64,000 nt of DNA from NCBI GenBank assembly GCA_041649575.1, contig JBAZMW010000003.1, positions 122,102 to 186,101 of the forward strand. Direction: 5' to 3'. The notes beneath the pieces were generated by a model. It made no database searches. It had not been told where the DNA came from and worked only from the letters and a program-made list of their open reading frames with translations. This stretch comes from Patescibacteria group bacterium. Its GTDB lineage: Bacteria > Patescibacteriota > Patescibacteriia > 2-01-FULL-39-33. Both the position numbers and the translations under genes were made by a program. Below, in pieces: positions 510 to 47,631 of this stretch. Each line of letters begins with the position of its first letter. Positions within the stretch are counted from its first letter, which is position 1.

Positions 510-1604
510 CTAGCTATTAATATTCTCGGGGGTCGAAGAGGAGGTTTCGTTAGTGGTTGGTGTGGTGGCTAACGGTTTAAAACTTTTCACAATCATCTGA
601 AAAAGCGTGGGGTAGCGGAATTCGGCGTCATCAGACATAATGTATTCAAAAGAATATATTTTGGTTCTTTCATCATCGGCTAAATAAACCTTTAATTCAT
701 CGGGAGAAACTATCCCTTCCAAATCACCAACCTTGAGAAGCGACAGCTGGCTCAAATTGACCTGCGGATTTGCCTGGGCATACCAGTTAACGGCGGACAA
801 ACGATCTGGGTTTTCCCTGACTGACACCCTGATTATTTCTCCGGTTTTGGTGGTGATTAAAATTTGACGCGAGGCCTCTATAACATTACCTGACCAGTTT
901 TTGGGCGCTAAAATCTGAAAATTATCCTGGGGAAAGCTGCTAGCCACCACCTGAATGAAGCTGGCGAGTGACAATTTGGCGGCACCGCCGGACTTGAGGG
1001 GATCGTAGCCGTTAACGAGCTCCGAACCATCGAGATAGCTATCCTTATCGGTATCCGGCAGACTGGGACTAGTGCCAATGGCATTTTCTTCCAAATCAGT
1101 CAAACCATCGCGATCTGAATCGCTGCTAACGGGTGGCGGGTTAAGCGAAATAGTTTCGTTGGTATTGTTATTTTTGTTGTTGGTATTTATATTATTATCA
1201 ACATTGGCATTAATTTCACCATTAAGATTGGTTTCTATGTTTTCATTAGCTGCCTCATTAAGATTGCTAGTATTATTATTTTCATTACCATTGCCAAGGC
1301 CGGAGTTAAGGCTGTTGGTATTGATAATAATGTTGCTGTTGGTATTAGTATTAGTATTAACTACGGCCAGAGGCTTGGCTTGATTGCGCTGCCACAAATC
1401 ATAGAAAAAATAAGTGGCCGAAACAGCAACAACGATAATTAAAACAATAAAAACTATTACTAATTTTTTGCCGGACGATCTGTTTTGCAGCGGATGGAAT
1501 TTCTGCGGCATAACGTAGATATCCTGGCTGGGCGGTGTTGCTGACGGTGCTGGATTAGTATTAATTGACTGACTGACTGCTTTTTGTTTTTTAGAACCAA
1601 ACAT
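510..1604 (-). CDS. bitopic membrane protein with Asn-rich linker and thrombospondin type-3-like Ca-binding repeats (DSDRDGLTDLEE.., DTDKDS..NGYDPLK)
   Basis: N-terminal approx 45 aa, a single TM helix (LVIVFIVLIIVVAVSATYFFY), an N/S-rich low-complexity stretch, DxDxDG-type acidic repeats ending in NGYDPLKSGG, then a C-terminal approx 180 aa domain. It lies 7 nt upstream of ybeY. Confidence 0.6.
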   Translation of the reverse strand: MFGSKKQKAVSQSINTNPAPSATPPSQDIYVMPQKFHPLQNRSSGKKLVIVFIVLIIVVAVSATYFFYDLWQRNQAKPLAVVNTNTNTNSNIIINTNSLNSGLGNGNENNNTSNLNEAANENIETNLNGEINANVDNNINTNNKNNNTNETISLNPPPVSSDSDRDGLTDLEENAIGTSPSLPDTDKDSYLDGSELVNGYDPLKSGGAAKLSLASFIQVVASSFPQDNFQILAPKNWSGNVIEASRQILITTKTGEIIRVSVRENPDRLSAVNWYAQANPQVNLSQLSLLKVGDLEGIVSPDELKVYLADDERTKIYSFEYIMSDDAEFRYPTLFQMIVKSFKPLATTPTTNETSSSTPENINS

Positions 1605-1633: not shown

Positions 1634-2380
1634 CTATTGGGGAACCTGAAAGAGGCGGGCGCCGCCGGTCTTTAGAGGGTCGTAACCGTTAATCACTTCC
1701 GAACCATCACTAAAGCCGTCTCCATCGGTGTCTTTATTTAAGGGGTCGGTTTTATAAATACTGACTTCGGCCCGATCAATCAGACCATCGCTGTCGGTAT
1801 CAATTTTATTGGGGTCGGTGCCTAATTGTTTTTCCTCATCATCGGACAAACCGTCACCATCACTGTCTTGAGGCGGAAGTGGGGCGTTAGTGTTAACAGC
1901 CGAACCATTGACGTTGGAGTTGGCATTGGTGTTGGAGGGGGCTGAAGCACTATTGGTATTAACGGTTGCGTTGACGCTGGAACTGGGGTTAGCATTCTGA
2001 TTACTGACAGGCAAGTTGTTTTTCAGAAAGCCTAAACTTGGCTTGAAAAAAACTAAAGATAAAAAAACGCCGATACCAATTACAACTAGTATTAAAATCA
2101 CCAACAAAAAAATAAATAATTTGTTACTCCAGATCGAGCGGCCGCCATAAATGTCTCCCAGCTGGCTTTCTTTTATGGGCAACCGGCTCACCTGCCCTGG
2201 CTGAATCGGCCTGGTGACAATCGGCCTGGTAACTGGCTCACTTTTACTGAAAATGTCATCGACCAAAGAGTCGCCGGGCGGGACTGGCCGATTGGCCGCA
2301 GCTGGCCGCGGCGGCAAAGTCGGCGACAGATTTTCGGAAGCACCAGAGCTTCTGGGCGTTTGCGGTGGCTGATCAAACAT
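1634..2380 (-). CDS. bitopic membrane protein, Pro-rich N-terminus, thrombospondin type-3-like Ca-binding repeats (paralogous architecture to 510..1604)
   Basis: Pro-rich cytoplasmic N-terminus, TM helix LFIFLLVILILVVIGIGVFLSLVFF, Asn-rich linker, repeats DSDGDGLSDDEE / DTDSDGLIDRAE / DTDGDGFSDGSE, and it ends NGYDPLKTGG. Confidence 0.6.
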   Translation of the reverse strand: MFDQPPQTPRSSGASENLSPTLPPRPAAANRPVPPGDSLVDDIFSKSEPVTRPIVTRPIQPGQVSRLPIKESQLGDIYGGRSIWSNKLFIFLLVILILVVIGIGVFLSLVFFKPSLGFLKNNLPVSNQNANPSSSVNATVNTNSASAPSNTNANSNVNGSAVNTNAPLPPQDSDGDGLSDDEEKQLGTDPNKIDTDSDGLIDRAEVSIYKTDPLNKDTDGDGFSDGSEVINGYDPLKTGGARLFQVPQ

Positions 2381-2390: not shown

Positions 2391-5300
2391 TTAATGACAA
2401 AAATCGGCTGTATTTAATCCGCCAAAAATATTGGCGTTATCGGTATTTTTATTTATTAACTCTACACTAGACCAAGCGGGAAGCCATTTTGTGCCATCTT
2501 TATTATATTCTCCGTTGGCAAAGATATTTTTCTTCTTGCCGATTAATCCATCGATCGGATCTTTCAGGACATAATAACTATAAACATAGGCGTCGGTTGG
2601 GCACTGCATTTTTTTGTTTATTTTGTCCCAACAAGTGGCTGGATCATAATCACCGGCACAGCCCTCTAGTTTGTTAAGCGGATCGGCCGGCAGAGCTTTG
2701 CCTAGAGCATTGGCCAGAGTGGCCTGCCAAGAAGGCCAAACGCTATAAGTACGATTAACCACATAAGTACCGGAAAGTAAAGGCGGGTAGTAATTGCCGC
2801 AACTAGCTCCGCCATAGCAACTAAAACTATTATAACATAATTTTTGATGATCGTTGGCGCAACGTTTCTGATTATAATAATTATCGAGTAATAAATTAAA
2901 TTCTTGGATATCGCTAATCCGTTTGGCGTCACGAGTTAGTTTGGCCTTATCCGACGAGCAATAACCAAAACCGCCCTTGGAACACTGGTTATCGACTAAG
3001 CATTTTTTACTATTATCCTTACTGCAGGAACCAAACCTATCCTGCAAACCACCATTAATATCGGCTGTCACGCCAGCGTTGAGCTGAAAATTATTAACCA
3101 GCTGTTTATAAATCTCTTTGGTATCGCCACTGGCGTCTTGGCTATAAGAAACTAAGTAAATACTGGTGTAAATATTATTGGCATTATTGTCTAAATCAGC
3201 GCCAGCGACATAAGTGGTTCTGCCCTCACTAACAGCCTGATAACCGTCAACCGTTAAGCTCTTGGGCTGCCCTTGTTTTTTGGGATCAAAGGTCTGTTGA
3301 TACCAGACTAAGGGAGAATAATGATTGGGGTTCTTGATTACTCTTAAACCGATGGCGTCGCTGGCATCTTCAAAAGAATAATAAGAAATTAATCCGTCGT
3401 CGTCGGTTTGTGGCTCGGCTTTGTTATAAATTTTTACCTCGTCGATATAGCCTTGCCACATACCCTGATCGGCAGTGTCAGCCCGATGACCAATCCTAAA
3501 AGGAACACCGGCCTGGTAAGCGACGCCAGAGATGATGTTGTTTTCTTCTTTGGCTACCTGAATGCCGTTAATAAAAATTTTTAGATATTTTCCGGGCTTA
3601 AAAGCAGCCGTGATTTTCACCCATTTATTGCCGTAATCCCTAAAAAAATTATCGTATTTAACCAACGAGGTATTGCCGCTAGCGTCGAAAACAATGAAAT
3701 CAAGACTGTCTTCTTGGCCAATGGCCTTACCCAGCAGCCAGCCGCGCTCAAGCCTGGGATTTGAATTCCAATAATAGTTGCCAGCTATAACCCTGCCGGC
3801 ACCCAATGAGGCTTCACTTAAATTAACTAAAGCGCTAACCGTTAATTCGCCAGTGATGGCGTTAAAAGGGTTGGTCGGATTGCCGCTCGCATCTATGGCT
3901 GTCAAATAATCGGCAGTGCGACCCAAAAATTTAGCCGCCCGGCCTTGTTCGCCGGTAACCAATTCGACACTGCCCAGTATTGCCAAATTATTAAAACCGA
4001 CCCGATCCTTGACTTGCAGAGGATTGTCCTTGTTGGTCAATAAAAATTCTTTGATGATGTCTTCCCGTCCAGAAATCGCTACTCGATTAAGAGAGGGTAA
4101 ATCATCAACCAGTGCGGCTTCGCCTCGGTCACGGCAATAGTAGGTTTCGAAATTAGTAATGGGAGTGGCGGCGGGAATGCTGGCACTGCCTATAAAATCA
4201 CGAAAAGGGAAATCGCCGATTTGGGGCCAGGGGTTGTCGCAAATAAAGACACGTTCGAAAACACTGGTCGCCGCCGAGCCGGCGCCGGAAACAACTCCGC
4301 TGGCCGTCACTCTAACAGCAGTGCTGCCATTAACGGTATTATTACCATAAGCAGTGACAAAAACGCTTTGAAAACCCTCTACCGTTTGATTCCAATCAGC
4401 TATTTGGGGAGAAGAACTATTATCAACAGCCAAAAGTCTCGGACCGACTATTTCCCACTTATAATTAGCGTTTAAAATGTGATTGCCGGTAACATCGGCT
4501 GCCTTGGCCCAATAAAAATGTTGGTTACCAACCAAGTTAGCGGCTTGATACTGGGCTGGATAATTCGTGTTCCAGTTGGCAGAAACATCGTCGTCTAGTA
4601 GATCTTCCGATGTATTTTTGCCACAATCATCGCCTTTACAGAAAAAAGTGTCATCGGTAACAGGGCCCTTAAATTCTACGGGCGGCTGGGCATAAACAAA
4701 AACTTTTTCAACTCGGCAATATTCCTGATTCAAAGTATGAAAAGTAAACAACTTGTCACCACTCATAGACACGCCCCACTGGCTTAAGACGCCCCGACGG
4801 CTTCCGTCTCCAGTATCACCATCGCCATTAACCCAAACCACGTAATCTTTATTTTTATCAAGCAGTCTTTGTGGGGTAATCAAAAGATGGGTGGCGCCAC
4901 CAAGATTAACAGCGCTGGCTTTTATGGGAATGAGATCGGTGGGATTGGCTTGCGCCGGAAGTCCCTGGCCGAACAGTTTGGCTAAAACATTTCCCGCCTT
5001 GAGAAGAAAACGAGCCAAAAAATTATTTTTACCAAGACCAAAAATGTTCAAGCCGCTAGGCACAGGGCTTTCATATAAACGGACATTGAGATTGTTCCAC
5101 TCCCCGGAAAGCGTTGACATGGTGGTGGTGGTTAGACTTTCCATGTCCATATTAATATTACTACCATCGGCAGCGGTAAATTTAATGTCTATAACCTCGT
5201 TGGGGCAAATATTGGTTGGGCTAATGGGGGTTGCTATAGGTCGCCAGTGACAGCAACAATCCTTGCCAACGCCCTTATTATTTATATCGGAACAAACATT

Positions 5301-8300
5301 GTCTAAATCGCGCTCGCCGCCGGTATTACAAAAAGAGCACTGCACTTCAAGTTCACCACAATCACCCGTATCACCACAAGATTTTCCCCCGCTAATTTTG
5401 GCCGTGATATATTGAATTAAACCATCGGTAATGCTGTCTAGGGCTTTATAATTGGCTCCCCAAGCCAAGGGATGACCGCCGGCGGCGCAGGTTAAATTGT
5501 TACGAACAGCATCTGGCGGCAAATATTTATCAATACTATAATAAGTTCCTAGCGGCCGATTCCAGGTTCCCCAGCTCCAATTGTAGCAGATGGGGCTCAA
5601 GAGCTGACCCTCTTTGTTACAGGCGCTGGAGGCGGAGTAAGGATTAGCCCAATGAGCTTGCGGTAAAACGCCAACACTATTGATGATTAACTTTTGGGGG
5701 AGCACCTGGACTCTGCCAACCTCGCAAGGCTTGTCTAGGGTTTTAAATCGCCAAGAGTAGCTATCGGGTTGGCCGGTTTCAACTTTACCATTACCACAGA
5801 CAGCGCCGGAAGCAGAGCCGGTGCGCAAACAAGTTGGACCACAGCCATCGCCACCGGTTGTATTGCCATCATCGCAGCTCTCGCCGCTTTCTATTTTGCC
5901 GTTACCACAAATTGGGGCGTTGGGTCTAGAGCCGGCCGGCCGGCCGCTTTCTGGCAAACACTTGGAGTCACATCCGTCTCCAGAACTGGTATTGCCGTCG
6001 TCACAACCCTCGCCGGTTTCTATTTTTTTATTGCCACAAAGTGAGCCATATTTTTGATTAGCGCCTTCTAGTTTACAGTCAACGCCACAGCCATCGTCAC
6101 CGGTTGTATTGCCATCATCGCATTCTTCTATTCCTGCTTTAACCAAGCCATCGCCGCAGGAAGCGGTATTATTATTGCCAAGATTATGGCAAGTGGTATC
6201 ACAATAATCAACGGCGTTATTACTGTCGGTATCGGAACATTGTTTAAATCTGCCGCCGGAGATGTTGCATAAATCACTGGCTGGGTTCAAAAGACAATTA
6301 TCAGTACAAACTCCTGAAACCGTATTCCAGGGGTAAGCATTTTTATCACAGTCTTCGCCTCTACCGCCAGTGACGTAATTTAGAGAAGCTAGTTGCTTGC
6401 CGTTCCAAGCTATGACGCCGTCTGCACCGCCCTTCACCACCACCCGATAAGTACTGGTCGAATCAAGAAGGTCTCCGCCCGATCTGGTTAATCTGATGTT
6501 TTTAGTATAACGTTGACTGCCGGCGGTCGGTTCGGTGATTGTTAAACTTTGTTCTCCCCCGACCGCTCCCTCCTTAAATAGAATGATATCGTCATTAGCC
6601 AAGAAAGTGTTCATGTCCACATCAAGACTAAAATCCAAACCAACAACACTATTAGTACAAATGCCTTCAGAAATATAATTAGGATTAACTCCACTATTAT
6701 CGCAAGAAGGGTATCTACTGGTGATTCTTAAATTTTCAAAACCGATGAACAACTGCCCGAAACCCCACCTATCGCCGCAATTACTATCATTCCAAGAGCA
6801 GTCCTGATCGCGAGTATTTTTGGCTCTAGCCTTAATGTTGGTGTCTCCTTCGGTTTTGGCGAAAACCTTAGTCGTATTAACGGCGGGGTCGGCATAGCCA
6901 TCACAACTGGTGGCGTCTTTATTGCAAATACCGGCTACCGCAATACCGGTGCCGCCAGTGCTGTTGGTTTCTTGAGAATCGTCAGCCAGCTTGATAAGCG
7001 AACGCCAATTCCAAACGTAAGAAGCCGGATTTAAAATGTTACAATTGGCTGCTTGGGGCCAAGCCTTGTAAATTTGCGTGTCGTCGGTAAGGGGCATAAA
7101 CTTTAGATGCGGATTAACGCTGACACTATTTATTTTGCCTAATTGATTGCCGGTTTTAAAAATCCAATAATAATCATCTTGACCGTCGCCAGCCGTTTGA
7201 CCCGAAGGGATATAATCCCAACCGGTCCTTACCTCTTCATTGAAACTGTTGTCAGTCATTAATATCCCTTCACTAAGGCCACTAGCCGCTTCTCCTCGAA
7301 CACCATTTTCGCCACCTAAAATAATTATCCGATACCAAGTAAACGCGTCAAAATTACTACTGGGCGTTATTACCACGCCTTCTGGCAAACCGTGCTCGTT
7401 TAACAGGTTTAGGCGATTAATTATTTCTTCACGAGTCAGACCGCTGGCATCTATTTCCGGGCTGTAAGAAAAAATATCTATGCTTGATAAATTAACTTCT
7501 TCATCGCAACCAGAAACGTTGAATTCTGTTTCCGAACCGCATTTTTGCAAAATAAAACTACCGGCAACAAGCGAACCATTAAACATGTTTTTACTAAAAC
7601 GAACGCCTAGCATCGCATTTATATAAGCGTCGCGAGAATTAGGCCAAGGCGTGGGGCTTTGGATGTTGCCGCTACTGCAATTATCATCCTCCACAATATA
7701 AGGATTGGTAAAATCGATGTGGGCTTCACAATAATCATTCTTGCCCGCGCTATTTAAAGAGGCGATCACTTTGGTAAACTTGGGATTATCGTGCATGGTT
7801 TCATTAAGAGCGAGGCCTTTTTCTTCAGCCCCGACCCTATCGTCTAACTGGACCCGGTTGCTGGTGTCTGTACTCCAGGACCAGGAATAACTATTAGGAT
7901 TTAGAATCAGGCAGGCGTTGTCAGCGCTGTCCAAATTAGCGCTGTAATTTGTCTCGGCCGCTGGCCAATACATCCAAGAAGGATCGGGCGAGCATTCCAC
8001 ACAACCTTCCGGGCAAATTTTATCAGAATCGTCATCGGCCCTGGTTTCAAAATTCCAACAATAAGCCGCATTATTGGTATTGCCACCGCCATAATTAACT
8101 TTGCAAAAACGGTCTTCTGCCCTGGCCGAAGCTGCCGTCTCATCCTTTATAACCTTTCCCGCTTCGCTGGAAATACCTTGTAACAAAACAACCTTATACC
8201 AGGAACCGGGATCGAGATTGGTAGTCGGAGTAAAAACAAAATAATCTTTATTGCGGTCATTGTTGTCAGTCTTTACCTTTAAAGCGCCGCTGGTAACCCG

Positions 8301-11300
8301 AACGCAAGAACTCCCCTCACGATTATTGCACTTTAAAACCACTAACCTGCTCTGAGCCGGATTAGTGCAGGTATAAATTCCAGCTTCTTCGGTAAAGTTA
8401 TTATCACCGCAGAAAGACGCAACCCTAACCCCCACATCGAAACGAGCGGAAATAACAGCATTCAAACAGGCTTGAGGGTTTTTGACGCCAGGATGCTCAA
8501 GTGTCCAGCCATCGCTCCAAGGAGTTGGGCTTCCCAAGCGAGAACCGAGAGAGCAACTAAGGCCACGCTGACACTCTTCAACAACATACAGATCGTCATA
8601 AATAATATTTCCACCGAATAGAAAGGACCAAGCATAAATGCCTTGAGTGGCCGAATAAGAAGGCCATTTGCCGCCGCAAGCCGAACAATCAGCTTTACAG
8701 CTACTGCTACAGGCGGCTTGGCAACCGACTTGATTACATTGTTTGTTGACTCTAAACAAATCGCCGTCGCATTCTTCTGGCCAGTCTATTCGGCCATTAC
8801 CACAAAGATTCTCTACTGGAGGAACAAAATTAGTAGTGCTGAAAGCCCAGCCAAACAGAGCCTGGGTGGCCGAACCCCACCCTTCGCTACGAGAACAATT
8901 TTTGATTAAACGACAACTGCTGTCACAACTAACGGTGCCAGCGGTAAATCCCAACGACTTACAGGTGGTATTGTTTAAATTAGCACCGTCGCATTCCTCT
9001 CCGGAATCAATAATTCCGTCATGATCGCAGGCAGTTATAACTTCACAGGTGCAACTGGTGGTATTACAAGTCAATCCCGATCGGCAGATAGAGACATTGG
9101 GGTTACAGGTGTCGCCAAGAACCCAACCACAGGGCTGACCAACGGCTCCAGAACTTAAAAGAAACAGATAATGATTGCTGAATTCTGCGCCATTATAGAC
9201 GCTGACGTCGGCCCAACCAATTTTATTGGCTGGGACGGTTTCGGTTATTTTCAGGCTGGCCCAATTGGGCTGGGTGACGCCAGAAGGAGAGGTGGTGACA
9301 TTGGCAAAAGACCAAGCGTTAGTGTTTTGATTCCATTCTTTAAGATACCAAATTAAATTTTGAGCGACAGCCGTTGCCAGAGGAAAATTAACACCATAAA
9401 TATCGGTATTGTCAGCGGCACCGGTGGCGTTAGGGTTAGCGCCATAACCAGGCTGCATTAAACAGATACTGGGCCGGACTCGACTATTAACGTTAAAATC
9501 ATTAATAAGCGGTCCTAGATAATTATTGGTTACATCGGTATAGCCAAATTCATTTTTGACCCTGATCGGGCCACTAACGGCCTCTGGAGGCACGGCAATA
9601 ATAATCTGATTGTCAACCCAGGTGCTTTCACATTTGTTGTTTAATTCTGAAGGAAATTTACCAAGCTTATCGTCGGCATCATCACAGGGATCGCCGTTAC
9701 CGTCGGTATCAGCACCACAGAAACGAACTTCCCCTTGAGTGGGCATTCTGGCAAAAATAAAATCGTCTAAATACAGATTGGTGCCGTTGGCTCCGGTTTG
9801 GCTATCGGCAATATTAAAGATTAATAAGCGATGAGGGTTGCCATTACGATCCTTTAAACGATCTATTTCTGAAGTATAAGTAAAAATAGCTTCGTATTCC
9901 TGCCAGTTGGTATAATTGCCAGCCACCAGCGCGGTAAGAGTCTGTTGGTTGAACGGTTTGGTCTGTATGGGACTGTTCACGCAACAATTAGAAGTGCTTT
10001 CTGTACATCCGCAACGGCCAGGATTGCTCGCACAGTAAACACCCCCCTGAAGAACGCAATTATTATCGGTGTAAACTCCAGCCATTGCCTTGGGCCAAGA
10101 CTGGGAAGCCCAATCATCGGCGCTATAAGCGATTTTGACACTTGCATTTCTGTCTAAAATGCCTTTGTATTTAAATCTTAAAATATACTTATCGCCCAGA
10201 TTAAAATCTAAACTGGAAATATCATAATAAAAAGAGACGTAATTATTGGTGTAGTGATAAGGCCAGTCGATTAAACTGCCATTATTAAACTTACAGGCGT
10301 GATTGGCGGCCGAGCAACCCATGGGTTGATCAGGAAAATCACATATATTGTTTACACTGTCCCACTCACAGCCACGATTAACACCACCGATGACATTTCT
10401 TTTATAAGGATAGGATAAATAAACTCCTACGCCGTTACACAGATCCTCACTACATCTCACCTGATTGACCTGCCAGTTGTTGGGCGGTTCATTGGCAGAA
10501 CGCCAAATTTTAACACTTTTAGAACCGGAAAAATATTCTTCATCCGAGATGCCAACGGTTGAACGAGATTTGGTCAATTTATACCAGTCGGGCGGCAATC
10601 CTCCAAGAGAACCTGCCTCAAAATCAACGTAGGTTAGGGTATTTACTAAGAGTGAACCGATCTGGGAAAAATTTTTTCCCAAGATAGAAATAAAATTATT
10701 AGGAGCGCCATTGGGGAGATCATCAGACCAGGTAGCGGGATCGTATCTACTGCTATCACCTTGGGGGTCATCGGCGGGAGAAAGATAGTTGATAATCGGA
10801 GGTTCGACACACTTACAGCTCCCGTCCCAGCAATCATAATGACAAATATCATCGTCGGGCTGACAAGCGGCCAGATTTCTATCGGCATCGCAATCAACTC
10901 CGGCACAAGCACCGCAATAATTGGTTCCCAGGATTTTTGGATCACCCCCGCAATCAATTCCCTCTTCACCTTGGCCGGCATCGCGAGTCCCATTACAACA
11001 ATGACCGGGCCTAACGGTAAAAGACTTGGTATTTTCAGCACTGTTGCTGTCATGATCATAGGCCTTGGCTTTTATTTGCACCCGCTCGCCAACATCGACA
11101 CCACTGGCGTTCCAATTGACTTGAGCGACTATTGGCGCGCTGCTGTTGGTATCGACCGGATCAGTGCCTATGGCCTGACTGTTGGCAAAAAAATCTACAT
11201 AAGCCACGCCAGCATCGTCGCTAGCTATGGCTCTAATATTATTAGTCCCCGCCCAATAGCTGTCAGGCTTGCAAATGGAACCGGGCTGAACTCTAACCGT

Positions 11301-12284
11301 CGGAGCGGCGGCATCGATTAAAGTCCCGGTGGAGAAGCTGCCGACGCATTGGCTGGGACTTAAGGAACAATCCAGGAGATAGCCACCGCAATTAATGGCT
11401 GTTCCGCTAATAGCAAGATTATAGGTGGCAGCGGCAGAAAAACATTTTAAATTGCCAAAAGGCCCGGGACAGCTGGTACTAGGGGTAAAAGCGGCCACCG
11501 ATCCAGTAACGACCAGGCTTCCGCCAACAGTATCGCCATTACAAGTATGATTGTTGGTATCACATGATTCCGAAAGACACTCATTATTATTAGTACAGGC
11601 TTGGCCATTGGTTAGGGTGGCTCCAGCCCGAGTAACCTTCAGATTCGAAATATCAATAGTGTTTTGATCCAAAGGATGATTAAAGAAAAACCTCACTACC
11701 ACATTTCTTAAAGCAATGTCATCCTTGGGTGTGATTTTGGTAGCCACACAGGCGCTGAGAAGGCCGCATTGGGGCGTAGTAGTGTCGCAGACGCTCCAAT
11801 AGCCACTCGCCTGACAGACTTTAGTACCGCAATTATTGGGTCCACAGGCAGCAGTCTCTCCGGGGGTGGTGCAAATCTCTAAATTACCCGAACCGGTGCC
11901 AGTAGCATTTTTCAAAAGATTGATGACAAAAGAGGCGATGGAGAAAGCCGAGAGAACAATAATCAATCCTATAACTGCTGAAATAATAATTTTTTTGGCC
12001 TTTTCGATTTTGCTTTCTTCACCCGAGGCCGTCATCCAGAGGAAGCCGGCATACAAAATTAAAATCAGAAGTACTATGCCAATAATGCCCAAAAAGATTC
12101 GAATAAAATTGACAATGACATCGATTAAATTGGAGTGAGCCAAGCCGCTACCACCAATAGTATCCAAACCAAAGTTGGTCTCTGCTTGGGCCAAAGCCAA
12201 ATTAACAAAAGTAAAGACACCGGCGATCACCAACAAGAGAATAATCGCTGTAAAAAATAATTTTTTTTGACTTCCAAAAGTCAT
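2391..12284 (-). CDS. giant (3297 aa) secreted/surface protein: N-terminal pilin-like two-helix hairpin, Myxococcus-type Cys-rich repeats, C-terminal LamG-like domain
   Basis: Single uninterrupted ORF. Signal-like N-terminus, then LILYAGFLWMTASGEESKIEKAKKIIISAVIGLIIVLSAF (two hydrophobic helices around a charged loop). Repeats CGDGLVKAGIEECDDGNTTGDDGCGVDC, CGNKKIETGEGCDDGNTSSGDGCDSKC and CGNGKIESGESCDDGNTTGGDGCGPTC. LamG-like segment near the C-terminus (..WVKITAAFKPGKYLKIFINGIQVAKE..). Many Cys pairs and Asn-rich beta-like segments. Confidence 0.8.
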   Translation of the reverse strand: MTFGSQKKLFFTAIILLLVIAGVFTFVNLALAQAETNFGLDTIGGSGLAHSNLIDVIVNFIRIFLGIIGIVLLILILYAGFLWMTASGEESKIEKAKKIIISAVIGLIIVLSAFSIASFVINLLKNATGTGSGNLEICTTPGETAACGPNNCGTKVCQASGYWSVCDTTTPQCGLLSACVATKITPKDDIALRNVVVRFFFNHPLDQNTIDISNLKVTRAGATLTNGQACTNNNECLSESCDTNNHTCNGDTVGGSLVVTGSVAAFTPSTSCPGPFGNLKCFSAAATYNLAISGTAINCGGYLLDCSLSPSQCVGSFSTGTLIDAAAPTVRVQPGSICKPDSYWAGTNNIRAIASDDAGVAYVDFFANSQAIGTDPVDTNSSAPIVAQVNWNASGVDVGERVQIKAKAYDHDSNSAENTKSFTVRPGHCCNGTRDAGQGEEGIDCGGDPKILGTNYCGACAGVDCDADRNLAACQPDDDICHYDCWDGSCKCVEPPIINYLSPADDPQGDSSRYDPATWSDDLPNGAPNNFISILGKNFSQIGSLLVNTLTYVDFEAGSLGGLPPDWYKLTKSRSTVGISDEEYFSGSKSVKIWRSANEPPNNWQVNQVRCSEDLCNGVGVYLSYPYKRNVIGGVNRGCEWDSVNNICDFPDQPMGCSAANHACKFNNGSLIDWPYHYTNNYVSFYYDISSLDFNLGDKYILRFKYKGILDRNASVKIAYSADDWASQSWPKAMAGVYTDNNCVLQGGVYCASNPGRCGCTESTSNCCVNSPIQTKPFNQQTLTALVAGNYTNWQEYEAIFTYTSEIDRLKDRNGNPHRLLIFNIADSQTGANGTNLYLDDFIFARMPTQGEVRFCGADTDGNGDPCDDADDKLGKFPSELNNKCESTWVDNQIIIAVPPEAVSGPIRVKNEFGYTDVTNNYLGPLINDFNVNSRVRPSICLMQPGYGANPNATGAADNTDIYGVNFPLATAVAQNLIWYLKEWNQNTNAWSFANVTTSPSGVTQPNWASLKITETVPANKIGWADVSVYNGAEFSNHYLFLLSSGAVGQPCGWVLGDTCNPNVSICRSGLTCNTTSCTCEVITACDHDGIIDSGEECDGANLNNTTCKSLGFTAGTVSCDSSCRLIKNCSRSEGWGSATQALFGWAFSTTNFVPPVENLCGNGRIDWPEECDGDLFRVNKQCNQVGCQAACSSSCKADCSACGGKWPSYSATQGIYAWSFLFGGNIIYDDLYVVEECQRGLSCSLGSRLGSPTPWSDGWTLEHPGVKNPQACLNAVISARFDVGVRVASFCGDNNFTEEAGIYTCTNPAQSRLVVLKCNNREGSSCVRVTSGALKVKTDNNDRNKDYFVFTPTTNLDPGSWYKVVLLQGISSEAGKVIKDETAASARAEDRFCKVNYGGGNTNNAAYCWNFETRADDDSDKICPEGCVECSPDPSWMYWPAAETNYSANLDSADNACLILNPNSYSWSWSTDTSNRVQLDDRVGAEEKGLALNETMHDNPKFTKVIASLNSAGKNDYCEAHIDFTNPYIVEDDNCSSGNIQSPTPWPNSRDAYINAMLGVRFSKNMFNGSLVAGSFILQKCGSETEFNVSGCDEEVNLSSIDIFSYSPEIDASGLTREEIINRLNLLNEHGLPEGVVITPSSNFDAFTWYRIIILGGENGVRGEAASGLSEGILMTDNSFNEEVRTGWDYIPSGQTAGDGQDDYYWIFKTGNQLGKINSVSVNPHLKFMPLTDDTQIYKAWPQAANCNILNPASYVWNWRSLIKLADDSQETNSTGGTGIAVAGICNKDATSCDGYADPAVNTTKVFAKTEGDTNIKARAKNTRDQDCSWNDSNCGDRWGFGQLFIGFENLRITSRYPSCDNSGVNPNYISEGICTNSVVGLDFSLDVDMNTFLANDDIILFKEGAVGGEQSLTITEPTAGSQRYTKNIRLTRSGGDLLDSTSTYRVVVKGGADGVIAWNGKQLASLNYVTGGRGEDCDKNAYPWNTVSGVCTDNCLLNPASDLCNISGGRFKQCSDTDSNNAVDYCDTTCHNLGNNNTASCGDGLVKAGIEECDDGNTTGDDGCGVDCKLEGANQKYGSLCGNKKIETGEGCDDGNTSSGDGCDSKCLPESGRPAGSRPNAPICGNGKIESGESCDDGNTTGGDGCGPTCLRTGSASGAVCGNGKVETGQPDSYSWRFKTLDKPCEVGRVQVLPQKLIINSVGVLPQAHWANPYSASSACNKEGQLLSPICYNWSWGTWNRPLGTYYSIDKYLPPDAVRNNLTCAAGGHPLAWGANYKALDSITDGLIQYITAKISGGKSCGDTGDCGELEVQCSFCNTGGERDLDNVCSDINNKGVGKDCCCHWRPIATPISPTNICPNEVIDIKFTAADGSNINMDMESLTTTTMSTLSGEWNNLNVRLYESPVPSGLNIFGLGKNNFLARFLLKAGNVLAKLFGQGLPAQANPTDLIPIKASAVNLGGATHLLITPQRLLDKNKDYVVWVNGDGDTGDGSRRGVLSQWGVSMSGDKLFTFHTLNQEYCRVEKVFVYAQPPVEFKGPVTDDTFFCKGDDCGKNTSEDLLDDDVSANWNTNYPAQYQAANLVGNQHFYWAKAADVTGNHILNANYKWEIVGPRLLAVDNSSSPQIADWNQTVEGFQSVFVTAYGNNTVNGSTAVRVTASGVVSGAGSAATSVFERVFICDNPWPQIGDFPFRDFIGSASIPAATPITNFETYYCRDRGEAALVDDLPSLNRVAISGREDIIKEFLLTNKDNPLQVKDRVGFNNLAILGSVELVTGEQGRAAKFLGRTADYLTAIDASGNPTNPFNAITGELTVSALVNLSEASLGAGRVIAGNYYWNSNPRLERGWLLGKAIGQEDSLDFIVFDASGNTSLVKYDNFFRDYGNKWVKITAAFKPGKYLKIFINGIQVAKEENNIISGVAYQAGVPFRIGHRADTADQGMWQGYIDEVKIYNKAEPQTDDDGLISYYSFEDASDAIGLRVIKNPNHYSPLVWYQQTFDPKKQGQPKSLTVDGYQAVSEGRTTYVAGADLDNNANNIYTSIYLVSYSQDASGDTKEIYKQLVNNFQLNAGVTADINGGLQDRFGSCSKDNSKKCLVDNQCSKGGFGYCSSDKAKLTRDAKRISDIQEFNLLLDNYYNQKRCANDHQKLCYNSFSCYGGASCGNYYPPLLSGTYVVNRTYSVWPSWQATLANALGKALPADPLNKLEGCAGDYDPATCWDKINKKMQCPTDAYVYSYYVLKDPIDGLIGKKKNIFANGEYNKDGTKWLPAWSSVELINKNTDNANIFGGLNTADFCH

Positions 12285-12319: not shown

Positions 12320-15300
12320 TTAACGCATAACTCCCAAACAACATTCATTGCCGCTGGCCAGTCCCTTGGTGATTATCCATAAACCGGGCTTGTCGTCCGG
12401 ATGAGCCGTATCCTTTTCACAAGCATTAGAATTACTATTGCCTTCCGAACCTCCGACCTCTGAACAAGTCTTCCAATTGGAATCGTTTGTCGGACGACAT
12501 TGACCAAAACAGCAACCGGTACGACCGCTGGCATCGGCCGTGGATTTATCCTTGGAGATTACCCAGCTGCCGGAGAGATAACTAAGAGGAGTGTTGGGAT
12601 TATAATAAGAAACAAAACAAATTTTATTGCTATTATAATCACAGACGCTAGCGCCATTAATACTACTGCAATTTAAACGACCATAAGAGGCCGGGTTGGG
12701 CAATTTGACTTGAGCATTGACCAAATCGGCGTCTCTGACGCAACCAACCGTATTATTACTGCCAACGGATTCATAGCCACAAGCATTGGTTGATCCGGTG
12801 ACCCCGGCTTCAGCAGCATTTTTGGGGCCACCAGCCGGCAAAAAGCAGTTTTGGGTAACCGACTGAACACCCGAACCAGACAAAGGGCCATACTCAACGT
12901 TTGGATCAAAGGGATTATGGCTAATCAAAGCCTCGGTGTACTCGGCCCAACCATCATTATTATTGTCTCGATCGGCCTGGCTAAGCCAATAACCCACCGC
13001 TATCTGATTTTGTGTCAGGGTCTCAAGAGCAATATAGCGCTGGGCCTTGTCTTTGTCAGTAGAACCATAATTCCAACCCGGTTTGATGGTATAACTGCGC
13101 ATCAAGCGATCAAAAGTCAAGTGAATCAATTCGTTACGGTCAGAAACTGACATTTGAGAAACCGGACTAATGGTTTTTAATAGTGGCGCTTTAATGTCAA
13201 TTTCGCTTGATAACTTAAAAGACCAAGTAAAATCATCGCCAAAACCAGAAACGGCAAAAATCGGAGTTGAAGAACTATAACTAATGACTCGATTACCAAG
13301 ACTGTAACAATTGCTAATGCCAATTCCTCCACTACAAATTATGCCTTCATTTAGATTGTAAGCAGTTCGACCCGATTGACCATTGCCATTTTGTGATTTG
13401 CCCTGAGCCAGCCCAACCCGCTGGCCATCATTATCCAAATAATAGTCAAAGCTACCATTAAAAGCGTTTTTGGACATATCCACCAAACCCGAGGCAGAGG
13501 TTCTGGCGAGCGGATAGAAAACGGTTTTAGAGCCAATGGTTTTTTGACAACGACCATGGCCATCACTAGCGCCTCCCCACTGAACGCATTTGGCGTCGGC
13601 ACTATCTATTAGATCAGAGGAGATTAAATTAATGGAATATGAGGTTGAAGTGGCAATCTCTCCGGCAGCCAAGCTGGCTATGGGCCAACAAGTCATCTCA
13701 TCGCCGCAGCTATTAGTCGCTCCACAAGAAGCGCTTGGCTTTAGACCAACGGTGTGATACTGATTGGAAAATTCCAAAACAAACTGGTCGTTATTAAGAT
13801 TTTGCCAAGTGTTATCGCTTTGTCTGAGACCAACTTTTATACTATCGTGCGTTATCGATAGAGGGTTGATGGCCTCGTTGAAGGTAACCTGAAAAATAGT
13901 ATTTCTAAAAGGGTCGGCTAACCCCTTAACCGCTCTTTGGCTAGAGGCGTCCTGCGCCGGAGTAATATTGGAAAAAACTACTGACGCTGGTGTATTTTTG
14001 CCAGTAAATCTTAAATTATATCTATTGGCTATAGAACCGGTGGTCTTGGTTTGCAAATCGCTACCAGCTCCAGCTTCAAAAATATTAGAAGCTATCAGCT
14101 TGTTTTTTATCGCCTGCCTATCGGTAGTGGCATTATTAGTGACTGCGATATCTTTACCAAGAATATAAGTATTGATCGCATTATTATTTTCCAAAATTTC
14201 AATTTTGTCGCCGGCCTGAGAAGCTGTGACATTAAAAGTCCAGTTAGTAACGCCGCTGGGCGAAGCAGCCAGAATAAACGTCAAACCATAGGGACCGATA
14301 TTAACCGTGCGACTAGAGGCGGAATATGGGCCATTATTAACATCGTTCATACCGCCAGGCCAATTGACATCAACTTTATTATTATTAGCGTCAATAGAGA
14401 CAACGACAGCGCCGCTAGCTGAACCACCATAGCTGCCAGTAAGACTGGCGGCTGGAGCATTAGGATTGGTGCTTGATGGTTGTGTGTAACCTTGATCAAC
14501 CTGGGGGGTGATAGTATTAAGAACCGTTAAGTTGAACTTGCTAACCGTGGGGGCGGAGGGAGAACTATAAACATCACCCTCGCCGTCGGGATAAGGATAA
14601 ACACCAGTAATATCGACTATCTCCGGCGGATCTAAGTCTAATTCTCCATTGGTAGTAAAATCCCAAAGATATTGTTTATTGATCAGGGAATTGAAAACCG
14701 AACGATCCGGTTCTTGAACCGATCTGACGCCTTCCTGCAAAGTCACCTGAAAGCGGCGATTAATTTTATCTTCCGCGCCCAGATAGGTCTCTGGCGTAAA
14801 AACAAAAGTCTTGTTGTCACTACTGGCAACCATCGTATTGTCGTAGCTGTCGAAACCAAAAGGATCGGTACTGGGAACGCAATTATTCTGATTGTCGAGT
14901 AAACAAATTTTAACATTTTTTATTCTTTCGTTGTCGCACCTACCATCACTATTAGAGTCATCACAAATGGTATCGGATTTAATTGGTACTTTAAAAGTAA
15001 CCGCTATAATTGTGTTGATTGGCACCTCTGTCTGGCCCGGGGTCGGATAAACGCTTTCGATTGGTCCGCGCCCAATACCCCAGCGACCGGGATCAATCGT
15101 CGGGCCACCGGGAGTGGTTCCCGGACCGCCGCCAAAGGTGGCGCCGGTTAGTATTCTTAAAACAAAAGTTACAATACTGAAAGCCGAAAGAATAATAATA
15201 AAGCCAATAATCGCTTGGGTCATTATCTTTTTGGCCTTTTCGATTTTGCTTTCTTCGCCCGCGGCCGTCATCCATAAGAAACCGGCGTAAAGAATCAGTA

Positions 15301-15553
15301 GCAACAAAATAATTCCTAAAACGCCTAAAATCGCCTGGATAATTCTGGCTATCACTACCCTCAAATCGGTCTGGGGCAAAGCCGAATTAAGGTTGCTTAG
15401 GCCAAAATTAGTATCGACGGGATTGGCCGGAGAAGCTGCTGCTAACTGCGGCACAGCTACTAGTAACAAAAAAACTACCAAAAAAATTGCCAAAAACAGC
15501 TTTCTGGTAGTTAGCGACGACCTTTGCATGGAAAAAAGTCGCGACTTAATCAT
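12320..15553 (-). CDS. large (1077 aa) secreted/surface protein, paralogous N-terminal pilin-like module
   Basis: The N-terminal approx 130 aa parallels the 3297-aa protein (DTNFGL.., LILYAGFLWMTAAGEESKIEKAKKIM..SAFSIVTFV). The remainder is a Cys-containing, Asn/Ser/Thr-rich ectodomain. It sits 35 nt upstream of the giant gene. Confidence 0.8.
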   Translation of the reverse strand: MIKSRLFSMQRSSLTTRKLFLAIFLVVFLLLVAVPQLAAASPANPVDTNFGLSNLNSALPQTDLRVVIARIIQAILGVLGIILLLLILYAGFLWMTAAGEESKIEKAKKIMTQAIIGFIIILSAFSIVTFVLRILTGATFGGGPGTTPGGPTIDPGRWGIGRGPIESVYPTPGQTEVPINTIIAVTFKVPIKSDTICDDSNSDGRCDNERIKNVKICLLDNQNNCVPSTDPFGFDSYDNTMVASSDNKTFVFTPETYLGAEDKINRRFQVTLQEGVRSVQEPDRSVFNSLINKQYLWDFTTNGELDLDPPEIVDITGVYPYPDGEGDVYSSPSAPTVSKFNLTVLNTITPQVDQGYTQPSSTNPNAPAASLTGSYGGSASGAVVVSIDANNNKVDVNWPGGMNDVNNGPYSASSRTVNIGPYGLTFILAASPSGVTNWTFNVTASQAGDKIEILENNNAINTYILGKDIAVTNNATTDRQAIKNKLIASNIFEAGAGSDLQTKTTGSIANRYNLRFTGKNTPASVVFSNITPAQDASSQRAVKGLADPFRNTIFQVTFNEAINPLSITHDSIKVGLRQSDNTWQNLNNDQFVLEFSNQYHTVGLKPSASCGATNSCGDEMTCWPIASLAAGEIATSTSYSINLISSDLIDSADAKCVQWGGASDGHGRCQKTIGSKTVFYPLARTSASGLVDMSKNAFNGSFDYYLDNDGQRVGLAQGKSQNGNGQSGRTAYNLNEGIICSGGIGISNCYSLGNRVISYSSSTPIFAVSGFGDDFTWSFKLSSEIDIKAPLLKTISPVSQMSVSDRNELIHLTFDRLMRSYTIKPGWNYGSTDKDKAQRYIALETLTQNQIAVGYWLSQADRDNNNDGWAEYTEALISHNPFDPNVEYGPLSGSGVQSVTQNCFLPAGGPKNAAEAGVTGSTNACGYESVGSNNTVGCVRDADLVNAQVKLPNPASYGRLNCSSINGASVCDYNSNKICFVSYYNPNTPLSYLSGSWVISKDKSTADASGRTGCCFGQCRPTNDSNWKTCSEVGGSEGNSNSNACEKDTAHPDDKPGLWIITKGLASGNECCLGVMR

Positions 15554-15607
15554 AAATTTTAATTATTTTTATTTAGGTTGTAAAAAATTATCAGCCAGAT
15601 CGCCGGC

Positions 15608-16434: not shown

Positions 16435-17862
16435 TTAATTATTTATTAATTTATTTTGCTTTTCTGAACTTGAACCAGTTGCCGCATTAATTTCCATAAA
16501 ACTATTTTCCTTGTATTTTTCCAAACGTTTTTTTATTTCCAAGACAATTTTATTAAAATCAACCACTTCCTGCACACCGCCCTCCATGTCGCGAATCAAA
16601 ATAGTGCCGTCGCTGATCTCCTTTTGGCCCAAAATCAAGGTAAACTTTACTTTTAGTTTATTGGCTTGCTCCAATTGGTTTTTCAAGCTGTCCTTATAGA
16701 AAGCCTGGGCTAACCGAAAATCACTTTTTCTCAACTTTTCGTATAAAACCATGGCTTTTCTCTTGGCCGGCTCTCCCAGTTGAGCCAAAAAGATATCCGG
16801 CTGATAAATTTCTGGTATGGCAATTTCTTTTTCTCTTAATTTGGCGACCAGGCGATCCAGACCCATGGCCAGGCCCACTCCCGGCGTCTCCTCTCGGCCA
16901 CCCATAATTTTGACCAAACCGTCATAACGACCGCCGCCGCCAAAAGCATTCTTGCCTTCGTTATCATCAATCGACCAATATTCAAAAATAGTTTTGGTGT
17001 AATAATCCAGGCCCCGAACAATATAAGGATTTAAAACATAAGGCAAGTCTAATTCGTCCAGATACTCGACTACCTTCATAAAATGAGTTTTGCATTCTTC
17101 ATCAAGATAATCTAAAATTTGTGGCGCCTCTTCGCGTAAATTGCGACAACTCTCCTCTTTGCAATCCAGTAATCTTAAAGGGTTTTTTGTCAAACGCACC
17201 TTACAGCTTTCGCATAACAATTTGGCTTTGGGACGATAATATTTCACCAATTCTTTTTTGTACTCTTCGCGGCAAGCCGGACAACCAATACTATTAACCT
17301 GAATTATCGATTCTAAGCCCAATTCATTCAAACTATTCCAGCCCATCAGGATTAATTGAGCGTCAAGGGCCGGGCTAATTTCTCCAATGGCTTCCCAGCC
17401 AAATTGATAGAACTGCCGGAACCGGCCGGATTGAGGTTTTTCATGACGAAACATCGGACCAAGATAAAACAGCTTGACGGGTTGCGGCTGATTGATCATC
17501 CCGTGCTGAATATAGGCTCGCACCACCGAAGCGGTCATTTCTGGACGCAGCGCCAGCTGATCACCGCCCTGATCAACAAAGGCAAACATTTCTTTTTCTA
17601 TCACGTCTGTCTGTTTACCAATACCGCGAACAAAAACTTCCAAATTTTCGAGGATGGGAGTGTTGATTAGAGAGTAGCCATAATCTAAACTAATCTTGGT
17701 CGCAATTTTTTTGACCATTTCCCAATACTTTTGATCTTGTGGCAAAATGTCGCGCATACCAGTAACAGTCGAGAGCTCCCTCTTGCCCTTGCGTTGTTTT
17801 TTGCCAGTCTTAGCTTCACTATCTTTGTCTGCTTTTTTTTCTATTTTTTTTGGTCTAGCCAT
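16435..17862 (-). CDS. hisS: histidyl-tRNA synthetase
   Basis: Class II aaRS motifs: GMRDILP, LRPEMTASVVRAY, GGGGRYDGL; C-terminal anticodon-binding domain. Confidence 0.9.
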   Translation of the reverse strand: MARPKKIEKKADKDSEAKTGKKQRKGKRELSTVTGMRDILPQDQKYWEMVKKIATKISLDYGYSLINTPILENLEVFVRGIGKQTDVIEKEMFAFVDQGGDQLALRPEMTASVVRAYIQHGMINQPQPVKLFYLGPMFRHEKPQSGRFRQFYQFGWEAIGEISPALDAQLILMGWNSLNELGLESIIQVNSIGCPACREEYKKELVKYYRPKAKLLCESCKVRLTKNPLRLLDCKEESCRNLREEAPQILDYLDEECKTHFMKVVEYLDELDLPYVLNPYIVRGLDYYTKTIFEYWSIDDNEGKNAFGGGGRYDGLVKIMGGREETPGVGLAMGLDRLVAKLREKEIAIPEIYQPDIFLAQLGEPAKRKAMVLYEKLRKSDFRLAQAFYKDSLKNQLEQANKLKVKFTLILGQKEISDGTILIRDMEGGVQEVVDFNKIVLEIKKRLEKYKENSFMEINAATGSSSEKQNKLINN

Positions 17863-17870
17863 GTTTAGGA

Positions 17871-18497
17871 TTATTTATATTCTGGTGAATTAAAAACTGT
17901 CAGGCGAGTAAAGGGCCAACCTCTCAACCAAGTACGACCAATGATGAAATCGCGTTTAACCGGACCAAAAACTCGAGAATCAAGACTCTGGTCGCGGTTA
18001 TCTCCCAGTAAGAAATATTCATCATTATTTAAAGTGACATTGCTATAGCCTTCGAAGGGCAAATCGGTTTCCATGCCCGGCATGAGATACTCTTCGGTTA
18101 GGGGACCACTAAAACTACCACTGGTAATAAAAACTCGTCCCGACTTGATCTCCACCCTGTCTCCCGGCAAACCCACAACCCTCTTAATAAAATATTGACT
18201 AGGATCTTTGGGGTATTTAAAAACAACTATATCGCCACGTTTGGGTTCGGCGAACCGGTAACTAATCTCGTCGATTATGAGGTACTCATGATCATAAAAA
18301 TTCGGCTCCATGGAAGCACCTTTCACATAGAAAGGCTGAATCAGGAAATAACGAATCGGTAAAATAATAACCAGAGAAATGATCGAGACTTTGACCATTT
18401 CCCAAATAAACTCGACAACCGCCTTGGTTTTTGATCTTCTTACAACTGGCGGGTAGCCGGTCAAACCTAAATTATCATTCGGATCAAAATTATCCAT
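17871..18497 (-). CDS. lepB: signal peptidase I
   Basis: GASMEPNF (catalytic Ser box), RGDIVVF, KRVVGLPGD, YFLLGDNRDQSLDSR boxes. Confidence 0.85.
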   Translation of the reverse strand: MDNFDPNDNLGLTGYPPVVRRSKTKAVVEFIWEMVKVSIISLVIILPIRYFLIQPFYVKGASMEPNFYDHEYLIIDEISYRFAEPKRGDIVVFKYPKDPSQYFIKRVVGLPGDRVEIKSGRVFITSGSFSGPLTEEYLMPGMETDLPFEGYSNVTLNNDEYFLLGDNRDQSLDSRVFGPVKRDFIIGRTWLRGWPFTRLTVFNSPEYK

Positions 18498-47602: not shown

Positions 47603-47631
47603 TTGACAAATTATTTATGGTATGCTATAAT
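47603..47631 (+). promoter_or_regulatory. perfect sigma70-type promoter TTGACA-17-TATAAT (cassette copy 1)
   Basis: TTGACA at 47603-47608, a 17-nt spacer, TATAAT at 47626-47631; embedded in the conserved context TACTATTGACAAA...GTATGCTATAAT. Confidence 0.75.

Follow-up and report, generated by a model that had tools for sequence, protein, structure and literature searches.

In this study we analysed a 64-kb stretch of DNA (the window, taken at its full length) from a metagenome-assembled genome (MAG) labelled 'Patescibacteria group bacterium', in which one open reading frame (ORF) of 3,297 codons occupies positions 2391..12284 of the minus strand. On balance, we lean towards reading its product as a giant, membrane-anchored, modular surface protein and a candidate host- or surface-contact fibre (adhesin) of a Parcubacteria-group bacterium, a view that is drawn from sequence comparison. 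The protein is identical to NCBI record MFA5029696.1, 'LamG-like jellyroll fold domain-containing protein', from a 191,558-bp contig that carries the neighbouring genes in the same record; related genomes are ~0.9-1.2 Mb. An initial annotation had given the coordinates and length of the ORF exactly. It had also proposed a host-interaction adhesin with Myxococcus-type cysteine-rich repeats, many cysteines and a C-terminal LamG/ConA-like segment. These three sequence features were all confirmed, and the adhesin idea is reasonable: it fits a Patescibacteria MAG, a predicted signal peptide and anchor, and Ig-like and LamG domains, although adhesion itself remains putative. The genome had been described as AT-rich, which was overstated, since G+C content is ~44-48% inside the gene and 41-50% over the whole window. 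More interesting than the combination of DUF4215 repeats and LamG are the VirB2-like front end of the protein, a four-gene surface cluster and an unannotated C-terminal domain family. The pilin domain, the paralogous pilin-fronted neighbour, the gene block and the C-terminal module were all absent from the initial annotation.

The protein begins with a predicted Sec signal peptide (aa 1-32, ..NLALA/QAE; 12189..12284, on the minus strand like every other feature of the gene), identified by hydropathy and by alignment with the signal peptides of free-standing pilins; the cleavage site is a predicted one. Next comes a T4SS_pilin (VirB2/TrbC-like) domain at aa 57-120 (11925..12116), recognized by Pfam PF18895, by a gapless alignment with pilins and by hydropathy. 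PF18895 is the VirB2/TrbC-like pilin family of Patescibacteria and of Mycoplasma integrative and conjugative elements, and it scored 36.2 bits on the giant against a gathering cut-off of 26.6 (profile positions 9-71 of 71). Two hydrophobic helices (~aa 62-84 and 98-123) are joined by a Lys-rich loop, SGEESKIEKAKK, and the giant has the arrangement of PF18895-type proteins, namely a signal peptide and then two hydrophobic helices with a short basic loop. It does not have their small free-standing size (~80-240 aa), as ~3,170 aa follow the domain. Hydropathy peaks only at aa 5-35, 51-89 and 93-127 (the signal peptide and the two helices), and there is no further hydrophobic segment after the pilin domain, including at the C-terminus. 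No LPxTG motif was found when the whole protein was searched.

When aa 1-140 were searched alone, 107 proteins were recovered, all 78-237 aa long and 35-66% identical (more than 100 of them at 40-55%); nearly all carry PF18895, often together with PF04956 (TrbC). In a joint alignment, the giant's pilin domain could be placed without gaps against free-standing Patescibacteria pilins of 116-142 aa, which stop ~10 aa past helix 2, the exact point at which the giant's ectodomain starts. The PF04956 TrbC/VirB2 model (cut-off 27.9 bits) gave no match to the giant at E<=1 and 20.9 bits with its pilin-fronted neighbour, and matched 2 of 15 orthologous giants at E<=6e-5. The NCBIfam model NF045849 (Mbov_0395 pilin-like) scored 33.7 bits, below its cut-off of 40. 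Mean identity to orthologs is 35% over aa 1-100 against ~20% over the whole protein, and the N-terminal pilin part is 54-61% identical both to the closest ortholog (locus L034) and to the paralog encoded immediately upstream. The window contains a third pilin-domain gene at 53375-53890 (minus strand), whose 171-aa product has T4SS_pilin at its C-terminal end (37.5 bits), a lipobox-like signal (..IVLAC) and a short Cys-rich extension that stands before the pilin domain, not after it.

Pilin-fronted giants (~2,100 to more than 3,800 aa), seen in ~30 genomes of the Parcubacteria group, are a conserved and undescribed family; our literature search, the coverage of which was incomplete and does not prove absence, found no description of such proteins or of this gene cluster. 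The family scan, in which an alignment of the N-terminal 503 aa was run against one genome per species, gave 80 loci, and ORFs were read at 45 of these. A common N-terminal architecture is shared by 27 complete giant ORFs of 2,096-3,656 aa and by four others of >3,650 aa that are cut by the end of the locus. A domain census of 15 full-length members found T4SS_pilin in all 15, Big_5 in 14 (best E=2.5e-30), TIG, DUF4215 and Big_7 in 10 each, VWA in six, VWA_2 in five and Laminin_G_3 in three, a set of domains typical of adhesins. Column occupancy and identity, taken relative to the window protein, define a conserved frame of aa 1-500, ~900-1800, 2000-2200, 2300-2760 and 3000-3297, and two segments, aa 540-870 and aa 2770-2975, are missing in essentially all orthologs. 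The closest ortholog, L034 (3,271 aa), has collinear blocks at 32-54% identity.

A search with the first 900 aa matched 20 shorter proteins (527-1,290 aa) that combine T4SS_pilin with Big_5, with or without TIG, Big_7 or PKD. One of them, P0269, comes from a Patescibacteria genome with the gene order of the window, in which the orthologous giant is split by gaps of 100 N. In GCA_038064815.1 (L002), the giant is listed as four 'genes' split at 9591-9690, 13870-13969, 17818-17917 and 20778-20877; entries such as 'IPT/TIG domain-containing protein, partial' are pieces of one gene of ~3,600 aa. Other pilin arrangements were seen as well. One locus (L086, 9494-16829) encodes a free pilin of 156 aa, then a pilin-PKD fusion of 537 aa and two PKD proteins, and 5 kb upstream of these has two further small pilins; another (L084, 8628-11659) has tandem pilin fusions of 456 and 552 aa, 8 kb from a DUF87/TrwB_AAD_bind ATPase gene. 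Named records with giants include Uhrbacteria, Magasanikbacteria, Buchananbacteria, Falkowbacteria, Kerfeldbacteria, Komeilibacteria and Parcubacteria. In the NCBI taxonomy, Uhrbacteria belong to the Parcubacteria group, and we take these lineages to be class ABY1 in GTDB. Many third-party annotation (TPA) MAGs titled 'uncultured Gammaproteobacteria bacterium' (L006, L007, L012, L014, L016, L018, L019, L021 and others) show the Patescibacteria-type gene order together with a giant, and their taxonomic labels are probably wrong.

Behind the pilin domain lies a conserved membrane-proximal ectodomain (aa 125-500; 10785..11912), which was defined by alignment with orthologs that carry PF13205, PF17957 and PF01833 (occupancy 0.7-0.9 in 14 orthologs). 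It comprises a Big_5-type Ig unit, a Big_7 Ig unit (23.8 bits, E=7.4e-5) and a Cys knot, C-x-NG-x-D-x-GE-x-G-x-DCGG..CGAC. A lineage-specific, beta-rich, Cys-containing insertion of ~330 aa follows at aa 540-870 (9675..10667) and is absent from 14 of 14 aligned orthologs (occupancy 0). This insertion has no Pfam match and only a marginal, implausible one in the PDB (nitrophorin, E=0.007), and it is 26% identical to internal parts of P0184 and P0161, two secreted proteins of the C-terminal module family described below. A CBM_4_9-like jelly-roll in the same segment is conjectural; Pfam gave no support, and an AlphaFold2 model (3-sequence alignment) was unusable at a predicted local distance difference test (pLDDT) score of 41. 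The stalk (aa 871-1943; 6456..9674) is built of weak TIG and Big_5 Ig-like units, collinear with orthologs at 20-32% identity, and also holds a Big_5 Pfam stretch at aa 1334-1379 and, at aa 1086-1124 and aa 1161-1200, variant copies of the Cys-rich repeat. PF13205 (Big_5, cut-off 23.6), described in Pfam as the SbsA S-layer Ig-like domain family, scored 29.4 bits on the whole giant, and single units scanned alone scored 18.3 and 14.3 bits. BLAST found no internal repeats in the giant, the stalk units being highly diverged. In total the protein has 138 cysteines (4.2%), the first at aa 138, so that all of them lie after aa 137.

The Cys-rich acidic repeat block (aa 1974-2172; 5769..6365) consists of a degenerate lead-in, three full repeats (aa 2043-2070, 2083-2109 and 2126-2152) and a truncated fourth (CGNGKVETGQ, aa 2163-2172), with the four repeats at 5769-6158. 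Pfam and TIGRFAM scanning placed the block above curated cut-offs for both PF13948 (DUF4215; 42.9 bits against 27, E=5.9e-11, 5 stretches) and TIGR02232 (myxo_disulf_rpt; 63.9 bits against 20.8, E=8.3e-18, 3 stretches). The initial annotation had reported tandem DNA repeats of about 90 bp at this site. Diverged copies do exist, but their spacing is 111-129 nt and Tandem Repeats Finder detected none in the gene. The DNA copies are 61-71% identical except for one 38-nt core at 97%, shared by repeats 3 and 1 (5839-5876 and 6085-6122; 37 of 38 nt identical over CDDGNTTG(G/D)DGCG), which may be a local gene-conversion patch. In L034, aa 1539-1830 are collinear with aa 1931-2215 of the window protein at 52% identity. 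Because L034 agrees with the window protein in having three full repeats and one truncated repeat in collinear order, the variation in copy number that had been suggested as a check is not seen at this distance. Tandem-repeat instability was rejected on these grounds, the DNA copies also being too diverged for slippage. Across more distant orthologs the number of repeat-like motifs ranges from 0 to 7. An insertion of the block in a Big_5 unit is conjectural; the spliced unit obtained by removing it gave no Big_5 match. A diversity-generating retroelement or long template-variable repeats were rejected as well, since no long repeat involves the giant gene, and scanned ORFs of the window gave no match to a reverse-transcriptase family. 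The repeat type had been thought unusual in such a genome. It is not exotic here, as it occurs in 10 of the 15 orthologous giants and also in the four further proteins with the C-terminal module, which come from metagenomes and are mostly unlabelled.

The LamG-like jelly-roll occupies aa 2766-2975 (Pfam core 2807-2956; 3360..3989), between a conserved pre-module region and the C-terminal module. It was identified by PF13385 (Laminin_G_3, ConA-like/LamG) at 45.8 bits against a cut-off of 27.6 (profile positions 14-144 of 151), and in the PDB it has a weak match (E=0.004) to pappalysin-1, in the LamG-like domain of that protein. Occupancy of aa 2770-2975 in orthologs is only 0.02-0.05. L034 has its LamG elsewhere, at aa 1309-1516 before the DUF4215 block (35% identical to the window LamG), and the regions that flank the window LamG are contiguous in L034; P0001 and the L002 ortholog likewise have no LamG at that position. 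Since LamG is absent or relocated in L034, P0001 and L002, we conclude that it is a mobile accessory domain in the family. The combination of DUF4215 and LamG is ordinary for this protein family.

The pre-module region (aa 2300-2765; 3990..5387) is homologous to P0001, P0264, L002 and L034 and includes the motif ..CDNPWP..FP..D..NFE.YYCRDRG..DDLP..EFLL. The conserved C-terminal module itself (aa 2976-3261; 2502..3359) was delimited by profile search and an AlphaFold2 model, and has two sub-domains. It is 37-52% identical in four proteins found with the C-terminal 648 aa, and a profile of the five module sequences retrieved 1,605 proteins at E<=1e-3 (1,196 at E<=1e-30) from 1.84 billion representative proteins (clusters). 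Of 135 members with a single hit, 126 have a module that begins before aa 80 and is preceded by a hydrophobic leader (median module start ~aa 37, median protein length 1,021 aa), and in most module-bearing proteins adhesion-type domains follow it. Source records name family members 'hypothetical', 'cysteine-rich repeat protein' or 'right-handed parallel beta-helix repeat-containing protein' (Patescibacteria, Falkowbacteria). The module is covered by no Pfam model and has no sequence-profile match in the PDB. The AlphaFold2 model (41-sequence alignment) was confident, with a pLDDT of 82.6 and a predicted template modelling score (pTM) of 0.82, and Foldseek comparison of this model with the PDB gave a best E of 0.03 at TM<0.2. 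A type IV pilin or pseudopilin fold was considered for the second half of the module and rejected, because the model is not structurally similar to solved pilins. The module is the best conserved part of the ectodomain and has Trp-rich motifs and polar residues (D, S, K, D, N) that do not vary. The window giant stops 36 aa past it; most orthologs run ~800-1,400 aa further (DUF4215, often VWA). Two module-family proteins have inserts between the module halves, LamG-like in P0239 (aa 172-350) and like a carbohydrate-binding module in P0248 (aa 190-284; ..YDFEASAAGW..). Together with the LamG before the window module, these make jelly-roll insertions at or inside the module a recurring theme.

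The giant is part of a conserved gene block. In ~30 loci the order is Der-LytR-SPaseI-HisRS-YqeY-[pilin+Big_5]-[giant]-[TSP3 protein]-[364-aa homolog]-YbeY. Upstream of the giant, the 1,077-aa paralog (12320..15553, minus strand) starts with the signal peptide and T4SS_pilin part seen in the giant, 61% identical over 90 aa, continues with Big_5, and is kept at the same position in orthologous loci. Downstream, two genes on the minus strand encode single-pass membrane proteins and are syntenic: one of 248 aa (1634..2380) with bacterial TSP3 repeats (TSP3_bac, 80 bits), and one of 364 aa (510..1604), without a Pfam match, with a TSP3-like motif and a C-terminal globular domain. Both have Asn-rich linkers and TSP3-type acidic motifs of the Ca-binding type. 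The four surface-protein genes and ybeY are separated by 35, 10, 29 and 6 nt, and a promoter-like site, TTTACA-17-TAAAAT (15556..15584, minus strand; a consensus match only), lies just upstream of the 1,077-aa gene. From the short gaps and this site we infer that the cluster is co-transcribed. On the source contig, just past window position 1, ybeY is followed by a pilM gene (type IV pilus assembly ATPase-like; 22368-23612 of L001 and 10566-11810 of L083), as it also is in L002 and in those syntenic loci whose sequence extends that far; the surface-protein cluster thus adjoins type IV pilus genes.

Based on these observations, we predict that the giant would be exported through Sec and that signal peptidase would remove aa 1-32. 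The VirB2-like hairpin, with its Lys-rich loop in the cytoplasm, would then hold the protein in the membrane and leave its C-terminus outside. The remaining ~3,170 aa could form a stalk of Ig-like units (Big_5, Big_7 and TIG), stiffened by disulfides in the acidic repeats, extended in shape and on the order of 100 nm in length. The aa 540-870 insert, LamG and the C-terminal module may act as binding modules along the stalk or at its end. The protein may also cooperate, possibly in a complex, with the pilin+Big_5 paralog and the two TSP3-repeat membrane proteins, whose synteny with it is observed. Cultivated Patescibacteria are obligate epibionts with essential surface adhesins (PMC11665869), and type IV pili, type IV secretion systems (T4SS) and predicted adhesins are essential in them (PMC11665869; PMC12857230), which makes host attachment the natural reading. 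Further, a conserved frame with a shuffled LamG and insert is the pattern expected of a surface protein that adapts to different partners. Several points weigh on the other side. Envelope proteins that are not adhesive can have LamG, Ig and VWA domains too, and most of the giant's Ig-like units fall below Pfam significance when scanned alone. The block has housekeeping genes on its flanks and seems to have been passed on vertically in several candidate phyla, which fits a core envelope function equally. Finally, few parts of the protein are as well conserved as the pilin domain, and a passive anchor would need less conservation than this.

The conservation of the pilin domain also speaks for a different reading, in which the VirB2-like domain would be a working pilin that is recruited by the Patescibacteria T4SS and displays the 3,170-aa ectodomain as an adhesin, either in the T4SS pilus (most plausibly at its tip, or sparsely along it) or docked at its base. 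This reading is supported by the gapless alignment, at 40-55% identity, with free pilins that end where the ectodomain begins; in that alignment the giant's domain cannot be told apart from them. In F- and T-pili the C-terminus of the pilin faces the pilus exterior, and short C-terminal peptides fused to F-pilin are displayed, which also counts in its favour. The two pilin-fronted genes in tandem, with a third pilin gene in the window, resemble the pilin arrays of 2-11 genes in the candidate phyla radiation (CPR), for which the same survey found no PrgB-like adhesin (10.1101/2025.01.22.634366). Other Patescibacteria pair free pilins with a pilin-PKD fusion (L086) or have fusions 8 kb from the ATPase gene (L084). 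However, no Pfam match to VirB4, VirB6 or VirD4 was obtained among the ORFs scanned in the window, and in the ~30 syntenic loci the mapping of nine window proteins, with the gene calls of L002, places housekeeping genes and pilM beside the cluster (the T4SS scan did not extend to the remaining genes of these loci). Nor is the giant matched by the TrbC model. An extension of 350 kDa cannot fit on every subunit of a helical pilus, which is sterically impossible for a major pilin, so at best the giant could be a subunit that is rare or confined to the tip. Patescibacteria are not known to build T4SS pili at all (PMC12857230), and this counts against a pilus location as well. We therefore regard a working pilin as unlikely, and as less likely than a plain membrane-anchored adhesin. 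It is similarly doubtful that the giants and the shorter pilin-Big_5 and pilin-PKD fusions are a new class of T4SS pilin-adhesin fusions, which would supply the adhesin not yet found for the Patescibacteria T4SS.

An envelope role has a slightly lower probability still. The giant would then be an S-layer-associated or matrix fibre that maintains the surface of wall-poor, ultrasmall cells, and not a host-specific adhesin. In several candidate phyla the cluster is invariably found within a housekeeping block, its Big_5 units belong to the SbsA S-layer Ig-like family, two partner genes encode Ca-binding-type TSP3 repeats, and genes for LytR-CpsA-Psr and signal peptidase adjoin. Yet lectin-type and VWA domains that are gained, lost or moved between orthologs suggest changing ligands instead of a fixed scaffold, and a single giant gene per locus, with a product of this size, is unlike the abundant lattice-forming S-layer proteins. 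The C-terminal module could be thought of as the catalytic or toxic part of a secreted or surface-bound enzyme or toxin-delivery protein, given its strong conservation, its invariant polar residues and Trp-rich motifs, its lack of a known fold relative and its position at the head of secreted multidomain proteins in ~1,600 clusters. We consider this very improbable. Pfam, NCBIfam and the PDB gave no enzyme or toxin family match, and the module usually stands right after the signal peptide with adhesion-type domains behind it, whereas polymorphic toxins carry the toxic domain at the C-terminal tip. Nor does an immunity-like small gene follow the giant, the next genes being those for the conserved membrane proteins.

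The window is ordinary chromosome. It encodes YbeY, YqeY, HisRS, signal peptidase I, LytR, Der, Pth, DprA and TopA, and also RelA/SpoT, ParAB, IF3, tmRNA, tRNAs, GroEL, pyruvate kinase and Lgt. Another ORF of great length (41196-47042, minus strand) encodes a Glu/Lys/Ala-rich protein of 1,948 aa that has no Pfam match, shows hydrophobic stretches at ~aa 1290-1340 and is unrelated to the giant surface protein. Its gene contains a 126-nt tandem duplication (42379-42484 and 42505-42610, 85% identical). Further along, a GC-rich patch at 47570-50300 (56% against ~44% elsewhere) has overlapping long ORFs on both strands (375, 352 and 367 aa), a tRNA gene beside it at 49162-49235 and neighbouring genes that have no family matches; it may be foreign or integrated DNA. 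A 56-nt inverted repeat (47587-47642 and 55832-55887) has arms that are 77% complementary and 8.2 kb apart. One arm reads TTGACA-17-TATAAT, and by their appearance the arms are copies of a strong divergent promoter and not the ends of an element.

Patescibacteria make up a large share of bacterial diversity, and except in a few Saccharibacteria little is known of the molecules by which they attach. The T4SS and VirB2-like pilin arrays of the group were essential in the one species tested, in a role that is unexplained. The locus described here provides candidates, in the form of a four-gene surface cluster found across Uhr-, Magasanik-, Falkow-, Kerfeld-, Buchanan- and Komeilibacteria and of a giant that joins a pilin domain to lectin-type modules. 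It also provides a family of 260-285-aa modules (~1,600 clusters) that is confidently modelled and has neither a Pfam entry nor a solved relative. If the pilin domain merely anchors the protein, as in the membrane-anchored adhesin that we favour, the giants would still give an uncultivated lineage a new and well-defined family of adhesins. If the domain is a working pilin, the view of the Patescibacteria T4SS would change, and the giant would mark its site of host contact.

The giant can be compared with several known systems. Like the TIGR02232/DUF4215 proteins of Myxococcus, it has the signature CG(D/N)G..E.GE.CDDGN...GDGC...C above cut-offs; unlike them, it has no more than three to five copies, set in a protein of far greater size, and belongs to a different phylum. 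It may also be likened to the minor pilins of type IV pili (CofB/TcpB-type tip pilins), in which a pilin fused to a large binding domain stands beside ordinary pilins. Those proteins, however, belong to an unrelated pilin superfamily (type IV pilus, not VirB2), have far smaller extensions and have an established location at the tip. Giant genes have reportedly been studied in Omnitrophota and other ultrasmall putative symbionts or predators. By description, the window giant resembles the Omnitrophota giants as a very large surface-type protein of small-celled, host-dependent, uncultivated bacteria, and differs from them in phylum and domain content.

Giant modular adhesins offer a closer functional comparison. 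Those considered were the repeats-in-toxin (RTX) adhesins of type I secretion systems (LapA, SiiE and MpIBP), the LPXTG giants, such as the 7,651-aa adhesin of Mobiluncus mulieris (PMC10619420), and Giant1-5 of Apilactobacillus (PMC12863079). The window protein is like them in exceeding 3,000 aa, in being by far the largest in its neighbourhood and in having an Ig-like stalk, lectin-type or VWA modules and Ca-binding-type partners. It differs from the RTX giants in that no RTX or HemolysinCabind Pfam family was found at E<=1 and an N-terminal Sec signal is present instead, and from the LPXTG giants in that its predicted anchor is an N-terminal pilin-like hairpin in place of LPxTG. Its highly diverged stalk units and high Cys content also contrast with the near-identical tandem repeats of giant adhesins. 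The last comparison is with the T4SS pilins of Patescibacteria, of which Southlakia epibionticum has an essential array of six VirB2-like pilin genes (10.1101/2025.01.22.634366; PMC12857230). Unlike these pilins, which are 78-237 aa long and end past helix 2, the giant adds ~3,170 aa and has no T4SS machinery found adjoining it in the window. It nevertheless shares with them the signal peptide, the two hydrophobic helices, the motif LY.GF.WMT..G....AKK..A.IGL, the occurrence of tandem paralogs and the same phylum.

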